Shown in pieces: positions 11,701-58,772 of a DNA stretch of 64,000 nt. The stretch's first letter is position 1; the number at the start of each line of letters is the position of its first letter. Source of the DNA: a virus; the IMG/VR virus record IMGVR_UViG_3300034198_017889, positions 39,845 through 103,844 of that record; one strand, given 5' to 3'. Under the pieces are notes generated by a model. That model saw only the letters and a program-made list of their open reading frames with translations, was not told the DNA's origin and did not search any database. Made by a program: the position numbers and the translations under genes.

Positions 11701-14700
11701 TTACAGCTACCGGATTTTCTGAAAATACACTTACAATTGATGCGTCTTCAGGAGCTATTATAGGATCCACCAGAACCGCGACCACTAGCTCACCCATACC
11801 TATAACAATAACTGCTATTAACGCAGCTGGATCATCTGCACCTGTTATAGTTTACTTGGTCGTGAAATCCACAACCCAAATACTGAATATTAATGGAAGT
11901 AATGCCACGATCTGCCAACTATTAGATAACACAGATAATCCAACCGGACTAACTTTGACGGGCTTACCATCTTGGCTTACATTCAACTACCCAGCCGTTA
12001 ATAATTGCAATATATCTGGGACTATTCCCACCGGTCAGGTATCAACACAATCATTTACTACTCAGTTAACAAGAATTTATGGAACTGGGTCCACAGTCCA
12101 GAATTTATTAATTAGTATTACACAACCACCTGTAATTACTTCTCCAAATCAAAACAAATACGACATAGCTCCACCTGATTTTAATAGCAGAGTATACACA
12201 ACCAGTTCACCATTACTCACAGTTCAAACCACGAACTCACCCATTTCCTTCTCAGCTACAGGTCTCCCACCAGGATTAACCGTGGATTCTCTAGGCAGAG
12301 TAATTGGTGGACCTGTTACAGTGGTAGGTGATTATGCTGTGAGTATAGCAGCCACAAATTCAGTTGGTTCCTCCGCACTAGCTTATTGCACAATAGCTGT
12401 TACTAGTAACTTAAAAAACATAACATTAACTAAAGAAACTCCCGTCTGTGAGAAAATTAATACTGAAGATGCTGCAACAATATACTCCATTTCAGGTAAG
12501 TTACCATCAGGAATATCCTTTAATGGCTCCCCAAGTATTAACTGCAATTTCTCGGGGACTCCCCTGGTAAGTAATACCGTGGGTGCATATCCAATTCTTA
12601 TAACTAGTAAATATCTTGGAGGATCTAGCACTAGCACTACGAATTTAAACCTAATAGATGTACCTAAGATAACTTATCCTGTTAGTGCAACTACATTTAA
12701 AATATACCCACCAGACTTTACTACTTCAGGGGCGGACACAACCACATTCACAGATGTATCCCCGCTCCTGACTGTACTAGCCACAAACTCACCCATATCT
12801 TTTGCGGCCACCGGGCTTCCATCCGGTTTATCCATCACCAACCAGGGAAATATAGTTGGAAAAATTACAGAGAGCAGCGGAACATTCAATGTTTCAGTTG
12901 TTGCAACAAATTCTGTAGGAGCGTCAGCTTCATTAGTATTCAATCTGTCTCTCTCCAATGTTTCCCCAACTATAAACGCTTATCAGGGTAAGGATCTATG
13001 CTATAAGTTTCCAATTCTAAGTAATGCTACCTCGTACTCATTATCTGGTGATGTTCCACCCTGGATAACAATAAACCCGTCCACAAAGGCAACCTGCCAC
13101 ATCAGCGCCACAAGCCAAACCATATCAGCTAACAACGTTTATAACTTTGTGCTAAACGCTGTGATTTCTGGCGCGAACATAAAGCAAAACCAAACCCTTA
13201 ATTACACAGCAATACCACAGATATCCTCACCTTCTACTAATTCTACCGTTGGTGTGGTTGATTTAGTGACTTTTACAGAGAATTATCCAGCAATTGCTAT
13301 TACAGCTAATAATAACCCAACAACATACACATGTAACCCTAGTTTGCCGGCAGGCCTTAGTCTATCAACATCTGGAAAAGTTATAGGGAAAGTATCAGCC
13401 GCTGCAGGTAATTATTCAGTTACATTAAGCGCTACTAACTCAGCCGGCAGCAGTTCAGTTGTTGTTAATTTTGTTGTGTCACGAACCACCAACAATACTT
13501 TATCGTCAGTCGCAACCGAGAATAACCAATACTGTTACAAGATCTCAGGTCTGGGGTTAGCAACAAGCTACGGATATTCAGGCACATTACCACCATGGCT
13601 AACTTTTGATGGGGGTGTGAGCGCAACCTGTAATTTATATGGAACCGGAGAGGGAGCTACTAACGAAACATATAATCTAACATTAATAGGCTACTATGGA
13701 AATTCATCTGTGTCTGTTAACTTTAGTTTGCGCTACTCAGCTAAGCCAACCATAACATATCCGATTGCTGGGTCTATATTCACAATTACACCACCAGACT
13801 ACAACAGTAAGGTGTTTACTCTGGCGTCCCCACTTTTTAAAGCTGCGGCAAGTAATAATCCGACTTCATTTGAGGCCACCGGATTTAATGCGAATACACT
13901 TAGAATTGACTCAGCTTCAGGGGCAATCATAGGGTCTACCGGCCCATTGGTGATCAACACCCCAGTACCTATATCAATCACAGCGATTAATTCAGCTGGA
14001 CGCTCACAGCCTGTCACAGTTTATTTGCAGGTGAATTCCACAAGCCAAACAATAAACATTGATGGGAGTAGTAACTCTGTTTGTTCACTATTAAACTTAT
14101 CGGATAACCCCACGGGTTTAACCATCACAGGTTTACCCAGCTGGCTTTATCTCAATTACCCAGCTATTAATAATTGCACTATCTCTGGGACTATTCCTTC
14201 GTTAATAACCACCAATCAGACATTCACAACCCAACTCACTAGAAGTTATGGGGTTGGAGCAACACTACAAAAGATAACATTTAATGTGGTGAGACCGCCC
14301 GTGATCACTTCCCCAAATCAAAACAAATACGACATAGCTCCACCTGATTTTAATAGCAGAGTATACACAACCAGTTCACCATTACTCACAATTCAAACCA
14401 CGAACACACCCACAACCATAACCGCTACAGGTCTCCCACCAGGATTAACCGTGGATTCTCTAGGCAGAGTAATTGGTGGACCTGTTACGGTTACGGGTAC
14501 TTATAACCCAGAATTCACAGCACATAACTTCGCAGGATCTTCCACAGCTAGCTGTGAGATATTAGCCACCAATATTACGGAAGTAATCAGCGCCTTGGAG
14601 GGTGTGGCTTTGTGCAAATCAATAATAACCCGTGATGGTGCAACAAGTTATTCACTCTCAGGAGCTTTACCAACAGGCTTGGTATTTGACGGTTCACCGG

Positions 14701-17393
14701 CTGCCCCATGCTCCTTCTCAGGAACTCCCACAGGTGCCAGCAATACTGGAGTATTTCCTGTGGATATATTAAGTACATATATAGGAGGATCCAGCAAAAC
14801 CACAGTTAATTTTAATTTCGTGGCTGTTCCCAAAATAACCACAACAACCGCCACATATAGGATTTTACCAAGTACTTATATTTCAGGATCACCCTATACA
14901 GACAGTCAACCAATCATAAGTATATCATCTTTAAACGACCCAACCGCATTCTCCGCAACGGGGCTTCCACCAGGATTAACCGTCACATGTTACGGTAACA
15001 TAGTTGGGTCACTGTCCGCACAGTCTGTGGGGCTATACTCTGTATCGGTAACCGCAGCAAATAGTGCGGGAACTTCAAAAATTTATAAATTCAGTTTAGA
15101 CTTAACTAAGAAAAAATCAATTATATCTTGGTCTAATCCTCAACCGATGGTTTACGGTACGGCTCTCAGTGAAACCCAATTAAACGCCGAAGCCAAAGAC
15201 TCAGCAAATATCGCTATACCTGGGATATTCACATATTCACCTTCTGCAGGTCAGGTGCTCTCAGCTGGAACAAAAACGCTGTCTGTTACGTTCACACCAA
15301 ATAACTCCGTAGATATAGACATAGCCACAAAGTCAGTAAGTATAAATATCTCAAAGATAACTCCTACTATAACTTGGGCTAACCCAAACCCGATAGATTT
15401 CGGCACCTTACTCGGAGACACACAACTTAACGCCACGGTTGATGGTGCTGTGGTGGGTGGTCAAAATATTTCTATAGCCGGAAAAATGGTTTATTCACCT
15501 GCTCCGTTATCCACGCCAAACGCCGGAACGGACACCCTCACGGCCACCTTTACCCCTACTGACACACTCAACTATAGCACTGCAAGAAAGACTGTGACTA
15601 TATTAGTTGAGAAGATACATCCATATGTGAGTTGGCCAACACCCTCAACCATTATATACGGAACAGCCCTAACCAATAGTCAGTTAAATGCTAAAGCTTA
15701 TTTATCTGAGTCGAATACCGCAACAACAGTATCCGGCACTTTTACGTATAGTCCGATATTAGGTTCAGTTCTTGATGCACCAGCTCAAACCTTAACTACT
15801 ACTTTTATACCTACCACGCCAAGTAATTACCTCCCTGATCCTGTTGTCAAAACTGTGCAAATTACCATAGAGAAAGCTACTCCAACAATTGTTTGGCCTT
15901 CACCAGCTAGTCTAACATATGGAGAATTTCTAAGTTCAACCCAACTCAACGCCTCAGAGAAAAACTCAGTACCTGGAGTTTTCTCTTACTCTCCAGCCTC
16001 TGGGGTAAAACTTAACTCAGGATCATCCCAAACACTATCAACTACATTCACACCCACAGCCTCAAATAACTATAAAACAGTTAGTACTACCACAAAAATT
16101 ACTGTAAATAAAGCCACTCCAACCATAAACTGGGACACACCTTCTCCTATATCCTACGGAACACCACTTAGCACAACTCAGCTGAATGCATCAGTTCAGG
16201 AAGCTGTTCCTGGGGTGTTTGAATATTTGCCAGCTATAGGAACCGTGCTTGCGGGTGGGTCTAAATCATTACAAGTTACTTTCACCCCTGAAGATCTTTT
16301 AAATTACAATAAGGTGACTAGAACTGTCTCAATACTTGTAAATCCAGCTACCCCGGTGATCACGTGGCCCGCAATCACTAGTATAACGTATGGAACATTG
16401 ATTGGTGTTACCCAGTTAAACGCTGAAGCCAGAAACCCTAATGGAGATAACTCGATTGCCCCTGGAACTTTAACATACTCGGTGAGCTCTGGTACAAAAT
16501 TAAATGCGGACACATACAGCCTAACCGTCTCCTTCACACCATCAGATATAAAAAACTTCAACTCAGTCACAGGTACAAACACATTAATTGTTAATAAAGT
16601 GATTCCTAGATTATTGTGGGGTAGCCTTAAAGATATTACATATCCTAAGGTTTTAACAACAGAACTCAACGCCACCGCCGTTGAGGGTACCTCCACAACC
16701 GTATCAGGTACTTTTGAATATACTGATAGCGGAAATAATATTTTAACCACAGGATCGCTACTCAACGCCGGATATAACACAATAACAGCAAAATTCTCAC
16801 CCACCGATACAGTTAATTACGCAATACCAGCTAATATAACAAACACTCTCCAAGTACTCAGGGGCTTTCCTTATGTTACTTGGGAGACTAGGTCCCCCTC
16901 TACCTTACCGTACTCAAGTAAATACCTGGGACTGGACCATATCCTAGGAGCTTATACTGCATCCACAGGAGCCGTCGCTGTTCCTGGTGTTTTTTCAAAA
17001 TCCCCAGAATCACTCACAAAAAATACAACCAGCATAACTCCACCAAACAACACCCTGCAAATCTCAGGAGGTTTCACACCAACAGATACCGCAAATTGGT
17101 ACTCTGTGAGTAAAGCACAAACAATATATTCTAGTATATGTTCTCCCACAGTTACATGGAGTACACCGGCTCCATTAAGTTTAGGAGGCAACACATCAGT
17201 AACTCTCACAAGCGCACAATTAAATGCAGTTGTGACTGACTGTGGTGGCGACCCCGCCTTGGGTACGATTGTGTATACACCACCAATAGGTTCAACTATT
17301 TCCGAAACAACAGTTGTTTATATGGAATTCACATCATCCAACGATAAAATCCTGAATGCTGTGGTGTATCGTACTGTTGCGGTTACCTCTTGA
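5745..17393 (+). CDS. Giant Ig-repeat tail fibre/adhesin (3882 aa)
   Basis: Paralogous N-terminal module, then many NSPTSFSATGLPxGL...ATNxxG putative-Ig (He_PIG-like) repeats, then ~80-aa KATPTIxW..P..IxYGT.L...QLNA repeats. Confidence 0.8.
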   Translation: MPALEYLSGNSLISYPFKDGRAVNSYLPLGDDTFLDALFVISGEVGISRPYISHISTAQSVITFELSDVVGGLFGVVELPTSSAVNHLDSVGDNFFHVTNSTWSAKFVFGPGIFELHTPGINIQFTPDETEFSPSVVIHTVPMVTALNFESYHNDGTLAAQTPEAVHIYSPGEEAKMTNGSNNVFNFLSPETMYLDIQRGAGTGLHDPCASGNITDIYSINRITPDSQGSMFFSASDCYSMELLTYNDTQLYSFIPDIASRYGDFATPIPQIGNTPGYTQYFNAIAPEMGGHGLVMQNHCQPKCPPQNLNAFAEYLNRVTDGAAELYKFVSNSYETYGTGTLSGDIFTVEVFCGTTLPDNWVSGVCSGSFTKYFHEGKTLQIRYDSTTIKSYKILDVLSNSAVRLNLEATNPPTINVSGPAPFKILELGIKNKLNSAILTNNEKLLTKNVPSIDINYGTVEAYNAVKDYGTFITAIVVIYNPTPAPLNFSVSWDTNNITKVVPSSIKTKTSSGVISYGGTVGIINCKDYATFEAIFFIPCSTSENSPNEGSVTFNVLNTADNLDLENSPKSVMATAATCVSADQAIIYVKALEGAPFSYYLPVGPGVTSLSFSGNAPNWLTFDNSITPGAGNLHGTPTGSVSGSYTISAGINSAGGSTAQTIVLTYVAKPRIVYPEDSSTIQIYPPDTNSRTYTEGAPLTPIVATNSPSGYSIVGAPLGLRQVGNGLIGQITLGSNPTFPINYVLTMSASNEAGESLPVTVNLELTNVPISTPAATYGTQFCYSIISGPEVLSQSVITSLPNWLSFNPAVNLVSSTTPPVCSLSGMNTSYSGKPEIVIVRQNLKGGSYRLVQYIIPYSSIPNITYPTPGAIFNVYPPNFVNSGDGATVFTAAYPLLKVYSTNTTTSFNATGLPLGLSIDNSGNIVGKITSGAGIYSTTITATNSVGTSPPVTFSFDLLDQVPTINAYQGKAFCYKFPILNNASSFSISGDIPPWLTVSSSVNTSCHISSAKLSQPQSQSYNLLVSADINKANISQAQIINYVALPKISYPTSGQVINLTAADYQNILFTTDFPLATIIASNSPTSYSASGLPTGLSITPNGKIIGKTSATAGDYDVVLTATNGAGSESISVTFHISSSGIRDLAFPNMPYCYKIAGFGAVDRYEYSGTLPDWLTFDGSPTALCNLYGTGTGTTGEVYDLTLTGYNGTSSTSLPYTLSYAITPTITYPIAGSIFTITPPDYNSKVFTLNSPLFKVTATNNPTTFRATGFPSNTFSIDPATGSIIGSTRTVTTNTPTPITITAVNAAGTSESITVYLVVSSTSQTLGIDGSTGEVCSLLSLADNPTGLTLTGLPSWLTFSYPAVNNCNISGTIPTGQVSTQSFTAQLTRIYGTGSTVQNLLISITRPPVITSPDQNIYDIAPPDFNSRIYTTLLPLLTVQATNNPTSFSATGLPPGLTINSSGRVIGGPVTVVGDYAVSITATNSVGSSSTALCTISVTNSIKNITVARETAICEKIITADGATVYSTVGKLPSGISFNGSPNINCNFSGTPLVSNPVGVYPINITSKYLGGSSTSTTNLNLIAVPKITYPISSAIFKIYPPDFTAVSGDSTTFTAGYPLLTVLATNSPISFSATGLPSGLTIDNSGNIVGKITSGVGTFNVSVIATNSVGTSSALSFSLSLVNTVPIISAYQGKDLCYKFPILSNATAYSLSGDVPPWVTVNTSASAACHISATNPSLNASTTYELVLSTVIGGANIKQSQVIKYTASPKISSPQANLVVSVSDLITFTENYPAVAVFASNSPTLYSCTPGLPAGLSITKTGKVIGKVGATAGNHNVAISATNAAGSDSVVVTFNVVRSSNNTLSSAAIFGESYCFKIQGMGTATSYGYSGTLPEWLTFNSDVGATCNLYGTATGLTNEIYNITLIGYYGDSSVSYNFSLQYSAKPTITYPIAGSVFTITPPDYKSKTFTLTAPLFKAAATNNPTSFTATGFSENTLTIDASSGAIIGSTRTATTSSPIPITITAINAAGSSAPVIVYLVVKSTTQILNINGSNATICQLLDNTDNPTGLTLTGLPSWLTFNYPAVNNCNISGTIPTGQVSTQSFTTQLTRIYGTGSTVQNLLISITQPPVITSPNQNKYDIAPPDFNSRVYTTSSPLLTVQTTNSPISFSATGLPPGLTVDSLGRVIGGPVTVVGDYAVSIAATNSVGSSALAYCTIAVTSNLKNITLTKETPVCEKINTEDAATIYSISGKLPSGISFNGSPSINCNFSGTPLVSNTVGAYPILITSKYLGGSSTSTTNLNLIDVPKITYPVSATTFKIYPPDFTTSGADTTTFTDVSPLLTVLATNSPISFAATGLPSGLSITNQGNIVGKITESSGTFNVSVVATNSVGASASLVFNLSLSNVSPTINAYQGKDLCYKFPILSNATSYSLSGDVPPWITINPSTKATCHISATSQTISANNVYNFVLNAVISGANIKQNQTLNYTAIPQISSPSTNSTVGVVDLVTFTENYPAIAITANNNPTTYTCNPSLPAGLSLSTSGKVIGKVSAAAGNYSVTLSATNSAGSSSVVVNFVVSRTTNNTLSSVATENNQYCYKISGLGLATSYGYSGTLPPWLTFDGGVSATCNLYGTGEGATNETYNLTLIGYYGNSSVSVNFSLRYSAKPTITYPIAGSIFTITPPDYNSKVFTLASPLFKAAASNNPTSFEATGFNANTLRIDSASGAIIGSTGPLVINTPVPISITAINSAGRSQPVTVYLQVNSTSQTINIDGSSNSVCSLLNLSDNPTGLTITGLPSWLYLNYPAINNCTISGTIPSLITTNQTFTTQLTRSYGVGATLQKITFNVVRPPVITSPNQNKYDIAPPDFNSRVYTTSSPLLTIQTTNTPTTITATGLPPGLTVDSLGRVIGGPVTVTGTYNPEFTAHNFAGSSTASCEILATNITEVISALEGVALCKSIITRDGATSYSLSGALPTGLVFDGSPAAPCSFSGTPTGASNTGVFPVDILSTYIGGSSKTTVNFNFVAVPKITTTTATYRILPSTYISGSPYTDSQPIISISSLNDPTAFSATGLPPGLTVTCYGNIVGSLSAQSVGLYSVSVTAANSAGTSKIYKFSLDLTKKKSIISWSNPQPMVYGTALSETQLNAEAKDSANIAIPGIFTYSPSAGQVLSAGTKTLSVTFTPNNSVDIDIATKSVSINISKITPTITWANPNPIDFGTLLGDTQLNATVDGAVVGGQNISIAGKMVYSPAPLSTPNAGTDTLTATFTPTDTLNYSTARKTVTILVEKIHPYVSWPTPSTIIYGTALTNSQLNAKAYLSESNTATTVSGTFTYSPILGSVLDAPAQTLTTTFIPTTPSNYLPDPVVKTVQITIEKATPTIVWPSPASLTYGEFLSSTQLNASEKNSVPGVFSYSPASGVKLNSGSSQTLSTTFTPTASNNYKTVSTTTKITVNKATPTINWDTPSPISYGTPLSTTQLNASVQEAVPGVFEYLPAIGTVLAGGSKSLQVTFTPEDLLNYNKVTRTVSILVNPATPVITWPAITSITYGTLIGVTQLNAEARNPNGDNSIAPGTLTYSVSSGTKLNADTYSLTVSFTPSDIKNFNSVTGTNTLIVNKVIPRLLWGSLKDITYPKVLTTELNATAVEGTSTTVSGTFEYTDSGNNILTTGSLLNAGYNTITAKFSPTDTVNYAIPANITNTLQVLRGFPYVTWETRSPSTLPYSSKYLGLDHILGAYTASTGAVAVPGVFSKSPESLTKNTTSITPPNNTLQISGGFTPTDTANWYSVSKAQTIYSSICSPTVTWSTPAPLSLGGNTSVTLTSAQLNAVVTDCGGDPALGTIVYTPPIGSTISETTVVYMEFTSSNDKILNAVVYRTVAVTS
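8322..14826 (+). repeat. Three tandem ~2,169-bp (~723 aa) intragenic super-repeats
   Basis: Equivalent PxITYP/PKIT anchors at 8322, 10491, 12660 and 14826 (spacings 2169, 2169, 2166), with long identical DNA blocks between units. Confidence 0.9.
15107..17390 (+). repeat. About 8-9 ~80-aa Big/MBG-like repeats at the fibre C-terminus
   Basis: Recurrent (K)xTPxIxW...YGT.L...QLNA...GxFxYS...L.AG...L..TFTP.D..NY. Confidence 0.75.
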
Positions 17394-39805: not shown

Positions 39806-40078
39806 ATGCACAGCGTTATCTATATAGACTCTGAGGGTAACATCTCAGGTCTATCAGACAACCTATTTGACAAGCTGGCTGCCCTCGGAGAGAGGGCAGT
39901 TCAGCGGGTGTCGAATATAGAATTCAACCACGAACTTCAGTTGTGGGAAGCCGTTGACCTGGAAGGAAATATAATAGGTACAGACAAATCCAGGTCTAAA
40001 CTAATAGAAATCGAGAGGGAGTACCTCAACAACAAAATTGAAAAGGGTTATGCAGAGAATAAAAACCTGCTTTATTAA
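39806..40078 (+). CDS. Hypothetical protein associated with Ycf46 modules
   Basis: LG...QRVSNIEF...W...RSxxIxxExEYL. Confidence 0.6.
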   Translation: MHSVIYIDSEGNISGLSDNLFDKLAALGERAVQRVSNIEFNHELQLWEAVDLEGNIIGTDKSRSKLIEIEREYLNNKIEKGYAENKNLLY

Positions 40079-54303: not shown

Positions 54304-54567
54304 ATGGAAAAGAAATACACCATCAAGATCAGCGACAACACAGGCCACACCGAACTCATGGAGCAGTCCGTGGGTGAAGCAGTGAGCGCAATCACCGAGA
54401 AGGTGGCACAACACGCCCATTGGGTTTGGGTTGATGGCCAGCTCTTTGAGTTCGATAAGGGTGAGGCTACCTCCCCAGGTAACCAGCAGAAGCTACAGGC
54501 CCGCCTTGAGGCAGCTCAGGACCAGAACATCGTGCTTTCCGGTACGCTTGTTGGTGGTTCTAAATAA
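54304..54567 (+). CDS. Ubiquitin-like (beta-grasp) protein with capped di-Gly
   Basis: 87 aa; N-terminal beta-hairpin YTIKISDNTGHTEL, helix, WVWVDGQ (cf. VxVNG of ThiS/MoaD), C-terminal IVLSGTLVGG-SK; E1 and JAB genes nearby. Confidence 0.72.
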   Translation: MEKKYTIKISDNTGHTELMEQSVGEAVSAITEKVAQHAHWVWVDGQLFEFDKGEATSPGNQQKLQARLEAAQDQNIVLSGTLVGGSK

Positions 54568-54587: not shown

Positions 54588-54617
54588 ATGGGGACGGAGT
54601 CCAATCCTCCTCCCCGT
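54588..54617 (+). promoter_or_regulatory. Hairpin after the Ubl gene (attenuator/stabiliser)
   Basis: ATGGGGA-CGGAG/CTCC-TCCCCGT. Confidence 0.45.
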
Positions 54618-54647: not shown

Positions 54648-56714
54648 ATGGAAATCTCTGTTAAAAAATTCAAAACATTTGTTAATACATTTAATAAACT
54701 AAGTAAGTTCGTAAACCAAGGGACTGTTGATTTCCCCTCAGACTACTCAAAGGCTAGACATGACGGTAGTGATAACCCGTATGATAATGCTTTCTCGATG
54801 GTTATTAAAAATCTAAAGTTTAAGACTATTGCCGCAGCATTTAATTACACAAAAGTAGGTTCAATCACAGCAAATGGACTTGAAATAGCCCCACTACACA
54901 ACGACCGCAATAAAAGTGGTACTATAGGAAAGCGATTCTATGAATCTTGTACATACGGTAATGCAGGTAAGTTAGCAATAGCCAAACCGATTAATGAGGA
55001 TCCGGAGGTTATAGCTAAGAATTTTAAGAGCATGCGTTTTATCCCTAAGACAATTCCCAAGGATGTAAAGATGCCATATATTATTCAACACGCCCCATTC
55101 GAGGTAATGGAGGGAAATCATACATATAGAATCTTAAACACAGCCAAACACAATTCACATGTGCTAACAATTGGACGTGATGATGAGCCTATATATGACT
55201 ACCTGGATAAAGGATTCTTTATTCGTGGTGTTAAGGAGGTAACTCCTAGTGGAAAAGAAACACGGCACATGATGGTGACCAACGAACTTAATGTGCACTC
55301 TATGCATATCTTTGTGATGGTTACCATGCAGCCTAAGCTTTGCACTATGCTAAAGAATGGTTGCTTCGTTCATTCAGAAGATTCTCAGATGATGCGTCTC
55401 AAGATGGAGAAGAAACTACTTCCTAAACATAAGAAGAAGTATGATGAGGTACGTGCGTTTATCGAGAAAGACTACCAGAGCAATACATCCCTATTGGTGG
55501 TAAACAAAGTCAAAAATGGCGAAATTGAGAAAGCAGGTATCAATGATATCTCTATAGGCAAAGATTCAGCCCAATACGAGAACATCAGAGTAGAAGCACC
55601 AGACTTATTAGAAGTTCTCTATGACAAGCTGAACTTTGGTGGTGAGTTTGATATCTACTCTATTATTGAGACTTACACAGAAGCTTTCCAGAAGAAGGTA
55701 ACAGATTTATCTGTGGACGCTGGAACTTTCGAATTCCCTATAATCAAGATCAATGGTTTTGATATTGCGGTAACAAAGAACAGCTCTGGAGTACGCAAGG
55801 TTAACGGAAAGCGAATCAATAGCACGGAAATTAAAGATGTAATATATCGTGCAAGTTGCCATCATAATCTTGATGAATATAACTTATTCGTTCGCCGTAT
55901 CTCAAAGATGAGTCTACGTTGGCATGATGCTATTGCTAATGGTATACAAGTAAAGATCCACAGCAATATCACTCGCGAGGAATACAAGAGTGATACACCC
56001 AGCACTGATGCTCCAGCTATTAAGTTCTGGATCGACCCAGCTGCTAAGTGTATTAAGATACGCACAGAAGACACTGACGGAGGAAAGGTATCTCTAGGCA
56101 GACTTCTTGATAAGGTTGGGACCATCAACAAGAAAACCAATGAAGGCTGGTCTTATAAACTAGGAGAAACCCGTAATTATCGTTGGGCTCGTAAGGAGCT
56201 CGTCAGAGCAATTCGGGACTGCTGTACGTTCACAAAGACCACCACCAAGGAAGATGGTACAGCAGAAACCTCTACCTGGACCACCGTGACCAAGGAGGAC
56301 ATTGCTAAACTTATCGAGGTAGCTGATGAGGCTAAGAAGAAAGCCATTGAGAGAAGCAAAGCATTCCTGGATGGAGCAGTTAAGACCACAGGAGCAGAGT
56401 TAATTGAGTTCTTAGGTAAAAAGGCATACAAGGTGAAGGGTGGACTCAGGGAGTACGCCATCATTGTGGAGTCTGCTAAGGTATATGACTTCAACACCAA
56501 ACAATATCGTTGCATTGTTAACGATAACCACTTCCGTGGTGCTGGTTATGATGACATTGCTGCTCGCCTATATGTTCTCAAAAACGACTCTGTGATGCAG
56601 GACAAGATCGGTACACTCAAAGGTGCGGCACAGCCTCAGTATGAGAATCATCATAATGATTATCAGCCTGAACGCACCATCGAGGATATTATTGATCAGA
56701 TTGACCTAGCCTAA
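54648..56714 (+). CDS. Large uncharacterised protein (688 aa), candidate E2-like/substrate of the Ubl system
   Basis: Start after AC-rich leader; C-terminal VKGxLRxY...YRCIV...DDIAARLYVLKND. Role is inferred from position. Confidence 0.5.
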   Translation: MEISVKKFKTFVNTFNKLSKFVNQGTVDFPSDYSKARHDGSDNPYDNAFSMVIKNLKFKTIAAAFNYTKVGSITANGLEIAPLHNDRNKSGTIGKRFYESCTYGNAGKLAIAKPINEDPEVIAKNFKSMRFIPKTIPKDVKMPYIIQHAPFEVMEGNHTYRILNTAKHNSHVLTIGRDDEPIYDYLDKGFFIRGVKEVTPSGKETRHMMVTNELNVHSMHIFVMVTMQPKLCTMLKNGCFVHSEDSQMMRLKMEKKLLPKHKKKYDEVRAFIEKDYQSNTSLLVVNKVKNGEIEKAGINDISIGKDSAQYENIRVEAPDLLEVLYDKLNFGGEFDIYSIIETYTEAFQKKVTDLSVDAGTFEFPIIKINGFDIAVTKNSSGVRKVNGKRINSTEIKDVIYRASCHHNLDEYNLFVRRISKMSLRWHDAIANGIQVKIHSNITREEYKSDTPSTDAPAIKFWIDPAAKCIKIRTEDTDGGKVSLGRLLDKVGTINKKTNEGWSYKLGETRNYRWARKELVRAIRDCCTFTKTTTKEDGTAETSTWTTVTKEDIAKLIEVADEAKKKAIERSKAFLDGAVKTTGAELIEFLGKKAYKVKGGLREYAIIVESAKVYDFNTKQYRCIVNDNHFRGAGYDDIAARLYVLKNDSVMQDKIGTLKGAAQPQYENHHNDYQPERTIEDIIDQIDLA

Positions 56715-56804
56715 TAATTTAGTGGGGTACAACCTTTTGCGGTCGGATTGTATTAAACGAGGATGGCCTGTATAGTCACGCCCCACTAAACATTAATAAT
56801 AACG

Positions 56805-57059
56805 ATGAAAAAGCTAAATAAATCGAAACAAAAAAGCAAATCAACTAAACTTGGATTTAAAATAAACCCGCTGGAATCGGTGCATGTTAAGTTAGGCGGA
56901 TCTTGGTTAACCCCTTTTATAAGGGTGGGGACCACGGGTCAGGATGAAATATACAAGCTACTTAAAATTGCAAGAAGTGCCCCGAATGATCGCAAGGTAG
57001 CCCAAAGAAAACGCACAAACTTCGCAAATAGTGATTATTACGGAGCTTACGAAGAATAA
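56805..57059 (+). CDS. Hypothetical basic protein
   Basis: ORF 84 aa. Confidence 0.55.
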   Translation: MKKLNKSKQKSKSTKLGFKINPLESVHVKLGGSWLTPFIRVGTTGQDEIYKLLKIARSAPNDRKVAQRKRTNFANSDYYGAYEE

Positions 57060-57077
57060 ACAACCAACACACACAAT

Positions 57078-57704
57078 ATGAAAACATATATCATAGATAT
57101 TGAAACCGAGCCCCTCAGCCGTGAGGAGCTCAAAGCATTCGTACCTGAATTCAAGGCAGATAGTCGCCTAAAGGATCCGGTTAAAATCGCAGAAGACCTA
57201 CTCTCAAAAGAGTCAGCGTTCTATACCAAAGCAACCCTGAACGCATTAACTTCTAAGGTTTGTGCAATCGGTATCTGGGATGTGAGCCAGCCTGAACCTC
57301 AGCTTCTTTGCGGTGGAGATGAGGAGAAGCTAATCAACACCTTTGGAGATCTACTAAAGGATAAGAGCAAGTTCATCACCTTTAATGGTGCTGGGTTTGA
57401 TATTCCATTCCTGTGTCGCCGTGGTCTTAAGTACGGTAAGGACTTCTTCTCGAAGTTCTTTCGTATTGATGGCGGTTTAAGCTATGATGCTCCTCTTATT
57501 GATCTTGCAGCTATGTGGGATTGTCGTAGGAAGGACTATACTAGTCTTAACGAGCTTGCGCTCCACCTGGGTGTGGGAAGCAAGGAGAAGGGTGAAGAAC
57601 TCTTCTACCAGACATGGAATAGAGATCAGGCAGAAGCAAAAGCCTATCTACGTAATGACCTGGATCTCACAAAGAAGATTGCCAAGAAGTGGGGAATCAT
57701 TTAA
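57078..57704 (+). CDS. DEDDy 3'-5' exonuclease (PolB-exo2-like)
   Basis: DIET, TFNGAGFDIPFL, YLRND. Confidence 0.88.
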   Translation: MKTYIIDIETEPLSREELKAFVPEFKADSRLKDPVKIAEDLLSKESAFYTKATLNALTSKVCAIGIWDVSQPEPQLLCGGDEEKLINTFGDLLKDKSKFITFNGAGFDIPFLCRRGLKYGKDFFSKFFRIDGGLSYDAPLIDLAAMWDCRRKDYTSLNELALHLGVGSKEKGEELFYQTWNRDQAEAKAYLRNDLDLTKKIAKKWGII

Positions 57705-58183
57705 TGGCCATAACGTACGATACATCAAACAATATGGGCCTTATTAAACAGATAAATAAAAGACTATCCCGTGTTATCACAGGTGCTGCTATGGAGTGTC
57801 GTCGGAACACGGAAGAAGAAGGTGGAATAGTCCTGACTCGAAAGGGTCAGGACTTCATCTTTGTTAAAGTTAAAAATCTCCACGAGGGTGAGCCAACGGC
57901 ATATGGATTATATGTTGCTGATCCCGAGGAGTTTGGACAAAAAGTGATACCTATGATTGGTGCGGGTTGGGAAATGTATGCGAGTTTTCACACTCACCCA
58001 CAGTTCTCACCTCTACCTAGTCAGTTGGACTACGATAAGTTGTTCCAGGGTTTCAAGTATAACTACATCTTCTCTAACCGAGATCGTGAGTTTTCATGCT
58101 CTGAGTGGTCAGCACAAAAAGACCTTCACACATTCACAATTAAACTAGAATCATTAATATACCTAACTAACTACAATGACTAA
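57704..58183 (+). CDS. JAB/MPN+ (JAMM) metallo-isopeptidase
   Basis: EEGGIVL...FHTHP...PSQLD = E..HxH..PSxxD; start coupled to the exonuclease stop (TAATG). Confidence 0.9.
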   Translation: MAITYDTSNNMGLIKQINKRLSRVITGAAMECRRNTEEEGGIVLTRKGQDFIFVKVKNLHEGEPTAYGLYVADPEEFGQKVIPMIGAGWEMYASFHTHPQFSPLPSQLDYDKLFQGFKYNYIFSNRDREFSCSEWSAQKDLHTFTIKLESLIYLTNYND

Positions 58184-58772
58184 GCTAAAGAAAATCGGTA
58201 TCGCGGGTGCGGGTGGAATTGGATCTAATCTCCTAGCCATCCTTTTTGACTACGGGTTCAATCGTAAACAGTTCGACTATTCGAGCGTTGACGTTGATAT
58301 CTATGATGATGACGTTATCGACACTAGTAACTTACTCCATCAGAACTACAAGATTGATGATGTGGGTAAGCCTAAGGTTGAGGTTATGGAGGATCGCTAT
58401 GTTGTAAAGGGCATTAATAAGTTCATGGAGGAGAAAGACTTCAAGAAATATGATGTTATTTTCAGCTGTGTGGACAGTATGGAGTTTCGTAGAACACTAT
58501 ATAATTGGGGATTCAGTAACCCGGGAAAAGCATTCTGGATTGATGGACGTTGCACTAGCCGCCAAGGTGGTTTGTTCAATTCTGATCTTCCTGAGGATGA
58601 GCTTAAGAAGTACATCACGGATGATAACATTCGTGGTGGTTGCTTGCTAAAGTATGAGAAGGAACAAAACATCAGCCACACACTTCCAACGGTTGTTGCA
58701 GGTATGATGGTTCAGGTGTTCTTGAACTTCCTACGCGGAGAAAAAACAGACAAGAAACTATTCATGATCTAA
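58176..58772 (+). CDS. E1/ThiF-family adenylating enzyme
   Basis: GAGGIGS, YDDDVIDTSNLLHQ, DVGKPKV, CVD...R, WIDGR, candidate catalytic Cys in RGGCL; no CxxC pairs. Confidence 0.9.
   Translation: MTKLKKIGIAGAGGIGSNLLAILFDYGFNRKQFDYSSVDVDIYDDDVIDTSNLLHQNYKIDDVGKPKVEVMEDRYVVKGINKFMEEKDFKKYDVIFSCVDSMEFRRTLYNWGFSNPGKAFWIDGRCTSRQGGLFNSDLPEDELKKYITDDNIRGGCLLKYEKEQNISHTLPTVVAGMMVQVFLNFLRGEKTDKKLFMI

Follow-up and report, generated by a model that had tools for sequence, protein, structure and literature searches.

We analyzed the right-hand 64 kb (positions 39,845 to 103,844, hereafter the window) of a 103.8-kb IMG/VR virus record, IMGVR_UViG_3300034198_017889, which is ~53% complete. On the + strand of the window, an ATG-initiated open reading frame (ORF) at 54648..56714 encodes a 688-aa protein, here termed BIG, that emerged as the fourth conserved member of a gene cassette also comprising a ubiquitin-like modifier (Ubl), an E1 activating enzyme and a JAB peptidase. 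This four-gene set is kept in ~140 viral loci with three gene orders and differing flanks, and the linkage is the strongest result of our analysis. As for function, we see about an even chance that BIG is an E2-like Ubl acceptor or ligase and, as such, the fourth obligatory part of a phage-encoded Ubl conjugation cassette. We favor this reading because it explains the missing E2, the four-gene linkage, an invariant Cys in a UBC-type topology, a Cys-bearing E1 and the retained JAB.

Searching with an alignment of close relatives recovered 27 viral loci in which genes for a helicase, PolA, GP88, Ubl, BIG, in some cases an exonuclease, JAB and E1 follow one another in constant order. An alignment of distant members, which are 17-25% identical to the window protein, yielded 38 further loci, where hidden Markov models detected E1 in every case, Ubl in 37 and JAB in 36. 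Here, the order is BIG-Ubl-JAB-E1, as opposed to Ubl-BIG-(exonuclease)-JAB-E1 in the close loci; E1 adjoins BIG in all 27 close and all 38 distant loci. Most distant loci contain no detectable homologues of the genes flanking the cassette in the window, and the flanks differ by clade, with PolA, GP88 and RecA on the one hand and ribonucleotide reductase and a sigma factor on the other. In the distant-clade locus L042, for example, genes for sugar-modifying enzymes and a class II ribonucleotide reductase neighbor the cassette, together with those for a sigma-70 factor and a split PolA. A third order, Ubl, a 457-aa short form of BIG, E1 and JAB, was read by hand in locus L123; when it was aligned with the family profile, the short form scored 95% (E = 2.4e-8), with the match spanning the middle and C-terminal domains. 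Reverse searching from E1 produced 80 loci, and BIG was present in all of those with enough upstream DNA, except for a small group carrying the short form. Since the linkage persists although gene order takes three forms and the surroundings change, the four genes behave as one cassette. The original prediction, made from the letters of the window, had proposed BIG as a candidate E2/E3 or dedicated substrate and tied this to homologues being linked to Ubl and E1; strict linkage to Ubl, E1 and JAB is what we found.

The region of interest in BIG is a C-terminal DUF7737-like domain with a predicted UBC/UEV/RWD-like shape (residues 547-660; 56286..56627, + strand), containing Cys622 (56511..56513) and the pair Asn646-Asp647 (56583..56588). 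An AlphaFold2 model of BIG, built on a 146-sequence alignment, reached a predicted local distance difference test (pLDDT) score of 92.5 and a predicted template modeling score of 0.72 and comprises several alpha/beta domains. In the last of these, a 33-residue helix (549-581) is followed by strands 584-588, 591-597, 602-606 and 612-614, a short strand at 620-621 and then Cys622, after which come a lower-confidence loop and helices 635-645 and 647-650. Cys622, thus, lies eight residues past strand 612-614 and 13 before helix 635-645, and the modeled topology reads helix, four-strand meander, Cys loop, helix. Folded alone, the domain gave a pLDDT of 85. A C-terminal unit after a coiled coil, with a single Cys behind beta-strands and ahead of a helix, had been anticipated from the sequence; this stretch is present, the model places it behind the 33-residue helix, and no Cys other than Cys622 occurs beyond residue 547.

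Structural comparison with VIA-align placed UEV, E2 and RWD domains on residues 562-664 of the whole model. [quoted passage not shown] The UEV domain of Vps23 scored 4.2 (root-mean-square deviation 3.9, 85 aligned), followed by the Tsg101 UEV (3.8), BubB (3.8; root-mean-square deviation 3.4, 79 aligned), E2S, VPS37A and Ubc9 (3.5 each), two RWD domains (3.3-3.4), Ubc8 (3.3), and the Cap2 E2 domain, UBE2F, FANCL and UbcH5c (3.2 each), with UFC1 and RWD domains of kinetochore and Mediator proteins lower. Foldseek searches of PDB with the whole model and the domain returned nothing at E<=0.001, ESM Atlas contained no usable match to the domain, and phmmer and profile searches against PDB sequences gave only noise. 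Matches to the model in BFVD were limited to three unnamed viral proteins of ~440 aa, which are probably the short form of the BIG family.

Conservation centers on Cys622. Among 233 unique C-terminal domain sequences collected from all proteins and loci, this column contains Cys in 232 and a gap in one, in agreement with the conservation anticipated for an acceptor residue; Asp647 is kept in 232 and Asn646 in 225. In the 146-sequence BIG alignment, which extends to <20% identity, only R161, D187, C404, G598, Y603, C622 and D647 are invariant, and there is no invariant Lys. The 457-aa short clade carries Leu at the position of Cys404 while keeping the Cys622 equivalent (SICIDN), which marks Cys622 as the more fundamental residue. 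Asn646 and Asp647 directly follow the helix that comes after Cys622. Canonical E2s have a ‘gate’ loop with Asn/Asp that comes after the crossover helix and flanks their active Cys (UbcH5 N114/D117, Ubc9 D127); to this loop, the Asn-Asp pair offers a suggestive parallel.

The last domain has cellular relatives. DUF7737 (PF24879) is the C-terminal domain of bacterial DUF4132 and DUF5724-DUF4132 proteins, and it is the last domain in the phage protein as well. We assembled six exemplars from Bacteroidota genomes with the architectures DUF4132+DUF7737 (~860 aa) or DUF5724+DUF4132+DUF7737 (~1700 aa). An hhalign comparison of 47 phage domains (alignment A5) with these exemplars (A8) gave 96.2% and E = 2.2e-9 over 88 columns, aligning Cys622 with the Cys of YLCIVP and Asp647 with the invariant Asp of the exemplars; the motifs VKGxxRxYxI, QYxCIV and LLxxD are shared. 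A likeness to the C-terminal domain of DUF4132-type proteins, as originally suggested, was borne out by this alignment. Comparing alignment A2 with one full DUF4132-DUF7737 protein gave 87% in hhalign, restricted to the C-terminal domain; unlike the exemplars, BIG lacks a DUF4132 domain and has only the last domain in common with them. Pfam contained no family matching BIG at cut-off; the sole match was DUF7737 (E = 0.045), with 17.6 bits for the window domain against a gathering score of 27, and sub-threshold DUF7737 matches occurred in 30 of the 47 phage domains (best E = 9.7e-5). The domain is thus older and more widespread than the phage cassette. Escherichia coli YehI (DUF4132) was rejected as an exemplar, as it lacks DUF7737 and shows no similarity to the phage domain. 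A full-text search found no paper on DUF7737.

The Ubl (54304..54567, + strand) is an 87-aa protein ending in LVGG followed by SK, with Gly-Gly codons at 54553..54558. It had no Pfam match. In an alignment of 39 homologues (A6), G84 and G85 are invariant and TGH and W40 motifs are present; all homologues end in L[VIA]GG, followed in the window clade by 0 to ~10 variable residues, while most distant-clade copies stop exactly at GG. The E1 (58176..58772, + strand) is a minimal ThiF-type protein of 198 aa (Pfam ThiF, 4.6e-19) with an invariant GxGGxG loop, invariant adenylation-site residues D44, K67, D100 and R125 (alignment A7) and a single invariant Cys, Cys156 (codon 58641..58643), which may lie in the crossover loop, judging by the spacing in MoeB/ThiF. 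Its best NCBIfam matches, PRTRC_ThiF and the ThiS-adenylating ThiF, tied at 4e-13, below cut-off, and its best PDB sequence match was the NEDD8 E1 UBA3 (1.3e-7), in an alignment that stops at position 106. These best-scoring relatives work in conjugation settings, PRTRC cassettes with Prok_Ub and Prok-E2_D in one case and UBA3 in the other, which we count in favor of an E2-like BIG. The match to SAMP-activating UbaA was weak, and relatives in cellular genomes were confined to partial matches of 25-37%. The JAB/JAMM metallopeptidase (57689..58183, + strand; Pfam Prok-JAB, 1.2e-9) conserves the motifs ExGG and HTHPxxxxxPSxxD; its best NCBIfam match was the archaeal desampylase (7e-17 for the L042 orthologue, far below the family cut-off). 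Its frame opens at a GTG, while homologues start at the Met of an MGL sequence; translation probably begins at the ATG at 57734, in which case JAB and the exonuclease gene would no longer overlap. Loci whose Ubl is encoded already ending in GG retain JAB as well. Since its retention there does not serve Ubl trimming, its conserved role is probably the cleavage of conjugates, which would imply that conjugates are made.

In a working model of an E2-like BIG, JAB would trim the SK cap and expose the Gly-Gly of the Ubl. E1 would then adenylate the Ubl and, going by what is known of the family, probably take it onto Cys156, from where it would be handed to Cys622 in the divergent UBC/RWD-shaped C-terminal domain of BIG. 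More speculatively, the middle and N-terminal domains might hold the target, which would make BIG a combined E2/E3.

A number of results weigh against an E2-like role. The fold scores of the C-terminal domain are weak, Pfam gave no E2 family match for BIG or the 47 domain sequences, a PDB profile search gave no E2 match, and two Prok-E2_D proteins from a Vibrio PRTRC plasmid reached <1% in hhalign. No HPN motif is present, and no His or Asn is conserved from strand 4 up to Cys622, which follows a hydrophobic strand (Y-x-C-I-V); His628, downstream of it, is not conserved. Moreover, an E2 is not strictly required for conjugation, as the archaeal SAMP/UbaA system demonstrates. On the cellular side, none of the six DUF7737 loci has a Ubl or JAB neighbor, and the two ~1700-aa proteins have Ser instead of Cys at the key position (L164 and L165; YLSILP). 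Lack of HPN is also a property of non-canonical bacterial E2s, and a Ser has been reported in BubB (PMC11601596). Cellular DUF7737 domains, which have a His in an HxGS motif, differ in bearing either Cys, as in the ~860-aa DUF4132-DUF7737 proteins (YLCIVP), or Ser. Such alternation fits a nucleophile and, equally well, a small buried residue. Set against this, the invariance of Cys in the Ubl-linked phage proteins modestly favors a thioester role in the phage family. The acceptor idea put forward originally is partly supported: the conserved Cys and the strict linkage to Ubl, E1 and JAB were upheld, but neither an E2 sequence signal nor an HPN motif accompanies them. The further statement that the locus lacks a recognizable E2 was confirmed, a point in favor of an E2-like BIG: Pfam identified none among the neighboring genes, and the four E2 families UQ_con and Prok-E2_A, Prok-E2_B and Prok-E2_D had no match anywhere in the 104-kb virus record. 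PADLOC models of E1-E2 systems matched the E1 part only.

The alternative that survives best, although we consider it unlikely, dispenses with an E2 altogether. As in archaeal SAMP/UbaA or Thermus TtuB/TtuC, E1 alone would conjugate, BIG would act as a substrate, scaffold or reader dedicated to this system, and its DUF7737-like domain would be a non-catalytic UEV/RWD-type docking module with a structural Cys. The leading fold matches, Vps23 and Tsg101, are indeed non-catalytic UEV domains, and RWD domains score like true E2s; the desampylase as best family of JAB, the weak UbaA match of E1, the weak fold scores, the lack of any E2 sequence or motif signal in the domain and the Ser-tolerant, Ubl-unlinked cellular DUF7737 proteins point the same way. 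A merely structural Cys, however, would rarely stay unchanged in 232 of 233 sequences at <20% identity in a family with only seven invariant residues. Without an invariant Lys, BIG also offers no conserved acceptor site as a substrate, and the Cys position varies in cellular homologues lacking a Ubl partner but not in the phage proteins.

An improbable second alternative is a sulfur-carrier system of the ThiS/MoaD/CysO type, in which a Ubl thiocarboxylate is made and BIG uses the sulfur, for example, in nucleotide or DNA thio-modification within the replication module. In bacteria, a GG-ended protein, a ThiF-type E1 and a JAB are the classical set of a sulfur-carrier system (Iyer et al. 2006, PMC1779556), the E1 matches the ThiS adenylyltransferase PRK08644 and PRTRC_ThiF equally well, and the cassette lies among genes of DNA and nucleotide metabolism in two phage lineages. 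Nevertheless, the cassette and BIG carry no rhodanese, cysteine desulfurase, PP-loop, pyridoxal phosphate or Fe-S signature, and no sulfur donor or acceptor enzyme family (rhodanese, desulfurase, ThiG, MoaE, CysM or PP-loop) was found among cassette genes or neighbors in the window and L042. JAB is kept where the Ubl needs no trimming, BIG looks UBC/RWD-like and unlike any known sulfur transferase, and the best solved relative of E1 by sequence is the NEDD8 E1. Very improbable, finally, is a BIG function unrelated to the Ubl, such as in replication, with adjacency due to inherited synteny: the whole replication block is syntenic in the window’s clade, so that linkage there alone proves little, and the exonuclease gene can sit within the cassette, but the linkage survives three gene orders and complete turnover of the flanks, and the E1-seeded search recovers BIG wherever the flank suffices.

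With a Gly-ended Ubl, a ThiF-type E1 and a JAB together, the phage locus resembles Bil, type II CBASS, Bub and PRTRC operons. In Bil (BilABCD) and PRTRC-type Ubl-E2-JAB-E1 operons, the same four roles are combined in one cassette, filled by a Ubl ending in Gly, a Cys-containing ThiF-type E1, a JAB and a fourth protein that also bears a Cys. In contrast to these, the fourth phage protein falls outside all Prok-E2 families and the E1 is unusually short (198 aa). Bacterial Ubl operons of the Bil and PRTRC types are anti-phage or plasmid-borne, whereas the cassette described here was found in phages only; searches of GenBank phages, genomes of cells and plasmids gave nothing other than partial E1 matches at 28%. 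The archaeal SAMP/UbaA/HvJAMM1 system likewise combines a GG-ended small protein with an E1 and a JAMM desampylase; unlike the phage cassette, SAMPylation works without an E2 and without an obligatory fourth protein, and the matches to its components are far below family cut-offs. As a further Ubl system beside replication genes on a mobile element, the PRTRC cassette of Vibrio alfacsensis plasmid pSEA2 (L068, 247551-263883) contains Prok_Ub, two Prok-E2_D proteins, ThiF and a DNA polymerase III beta-clamp homologue.

Prokaryotic Ubl conjugation has so far been described as cellular machinery, mostly in anti-phage defense (Bil, CBASS Cap2/Cap3 and Bub). For phages, only the lambda/T1 tail-assembly Ubl-JAB pair was listed by Iyer et al. 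2006 (PMC1779556), and our full-text literature searches turned up no account of Ubl/E1/JAB conjugation encoded by a phage. The present data reveal a lineage of large uncultured phages that retains a tag, an activating enzyme and a protease of its own, along with a large protein ending in a domain that resembles a pared-down E2. New in this analysis are the homology to DUF7737 based on true exemplars, a short clade in which Cys622 is kept and Cys404 lost, the reverse E1 search and the JAB-retention argument. If Cys622 carries the tag, it would define a new E2-like clade, provide the first functional lead for DUF7737 and DUF4132 proteins and raise the question of whether, inside the host cell, the virus tags proteins of its own replication or the defenses of the host. 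A broader proposal, to which we assign somewhat less than an even chance, is that DUF7737 represents an unrecognized clade of the E2/UBC superfold that, in large freshwater and marine phages, serves as the Cys-bearing transfer module of a virus-owned Ubl-E1-JAB system within a multidomain E2/E3-like protein tagging phage or host proteins during replication. Conjugation enzymes would then have relatives in the DUF4132-DUF7737 proteins, which are widespread in bacteria. In one Bacteroidota genome (L169:2470-5771; G092, contig 97), a DUF4132-DUF7737 gene overlaps the start of a ThiF-family gene by four bases; this gene is a canonical ThiF (PF00899, 1e-64), and the locus is the only one of the six with an E1-type neighbor. 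The adjacency may be due to chance or may be a cellular echo of the phage linkage.

The BIG family is sizeable. We identified 48 homologues in a 90%-clustered collection; from 1.84 billion 50%-clusters, 294 representatives were recovered at E<=0.001, with lengths of 600-750 aa in nearly every case; matches of 110-154 aa may be fragments at contig ends. All relatives derive from uncultured viral or metagenome DNA and none is named. No homologue was found among 50,697 GenBank phage records and no relative among 185,579 prokaryote species, each represented by one genome, and PHROGs, PADLOC and NCBIfam contained nothing meaningful for BIG. The label ‘orphan’ originally given to BIG, therefore, stands with regard to Pfam, where no family matches at cut-off, but not with regard to homologues, of which there are 48 close and 294 clustered ones. 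Besides the C-terminal domain, a middle domain (~residues 355-545; 55710..56282, + strand) with RINKxE and RASC(404)HH motifs (Cys404 codon 55857..55859) belongs, with one other region, to the parts best conserved in distant homologues and is kept in the 457-aa short clade. It had no fold match, and the remainder of BIG outside the last domain likewise showed no recognizable fold. At the C terminus, an acidic tail modeled with low confidence (56628..56711, + strand; pLDDT 47-77) is present only in the window’s clade; in distant clades, the protein ends right after a TL motif. A longer frame of BIG opens at 54588, while every homologue begins at the MEIS-type start corresponding to 54648, leaving 80 nt between BIG and the upstream Ubl ORF.

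Genes in the window are densely packed on the + strand. Upstream of BIG are a DnaB-like helicase, a UDG-fused family-A polymerase, a GP88-family protein, a 172-aa ORF and the Ubl ORF; downstream follow an 84-aa ORF, an exonuclease of RNase H fold, the JAB peptidase, the E1, a RecA-like protein and an Ogg-like glycosylase. The RNase H-like 3'-5' exonuclease between BIG and JAB (57078..57704, + strand; Pfam RNase_H_2, 2e-8) is not a constant part of the cassette, occurring in only some loci of the window’s clade and being absent from the cassette in distant clades. Near-identical DNA was found in lake and freshwater metagenomes from several studies. No RNA run was listed as carrying it. A run labeled metatranscriptomic, flagged as probably DNA, provided contigs over the Ubl and the C-terminal domain and was not counted as expression. 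In L042, the region 3' of the cassette (13463-16043) encodes a phage sigma-70 factor, then an early-ending family-A polymerase gene and an HNH endonuclease ORF, and the polymerase gene looks split or intron-interrupted. Within the short-form cassette of L123 (4732-5721), a 329-aa ORF starts with a zinc-ribbon-like CxxC...CxxC pattern, which we take to be reminiscent of TFIIB-type factors. In the window itself, the 84-aa ORF between BIG and the exonuclease (56805-57059) is poorly conserved, and one lake-water strain (run X6) carries 181 other letters in place of 56798-57015.

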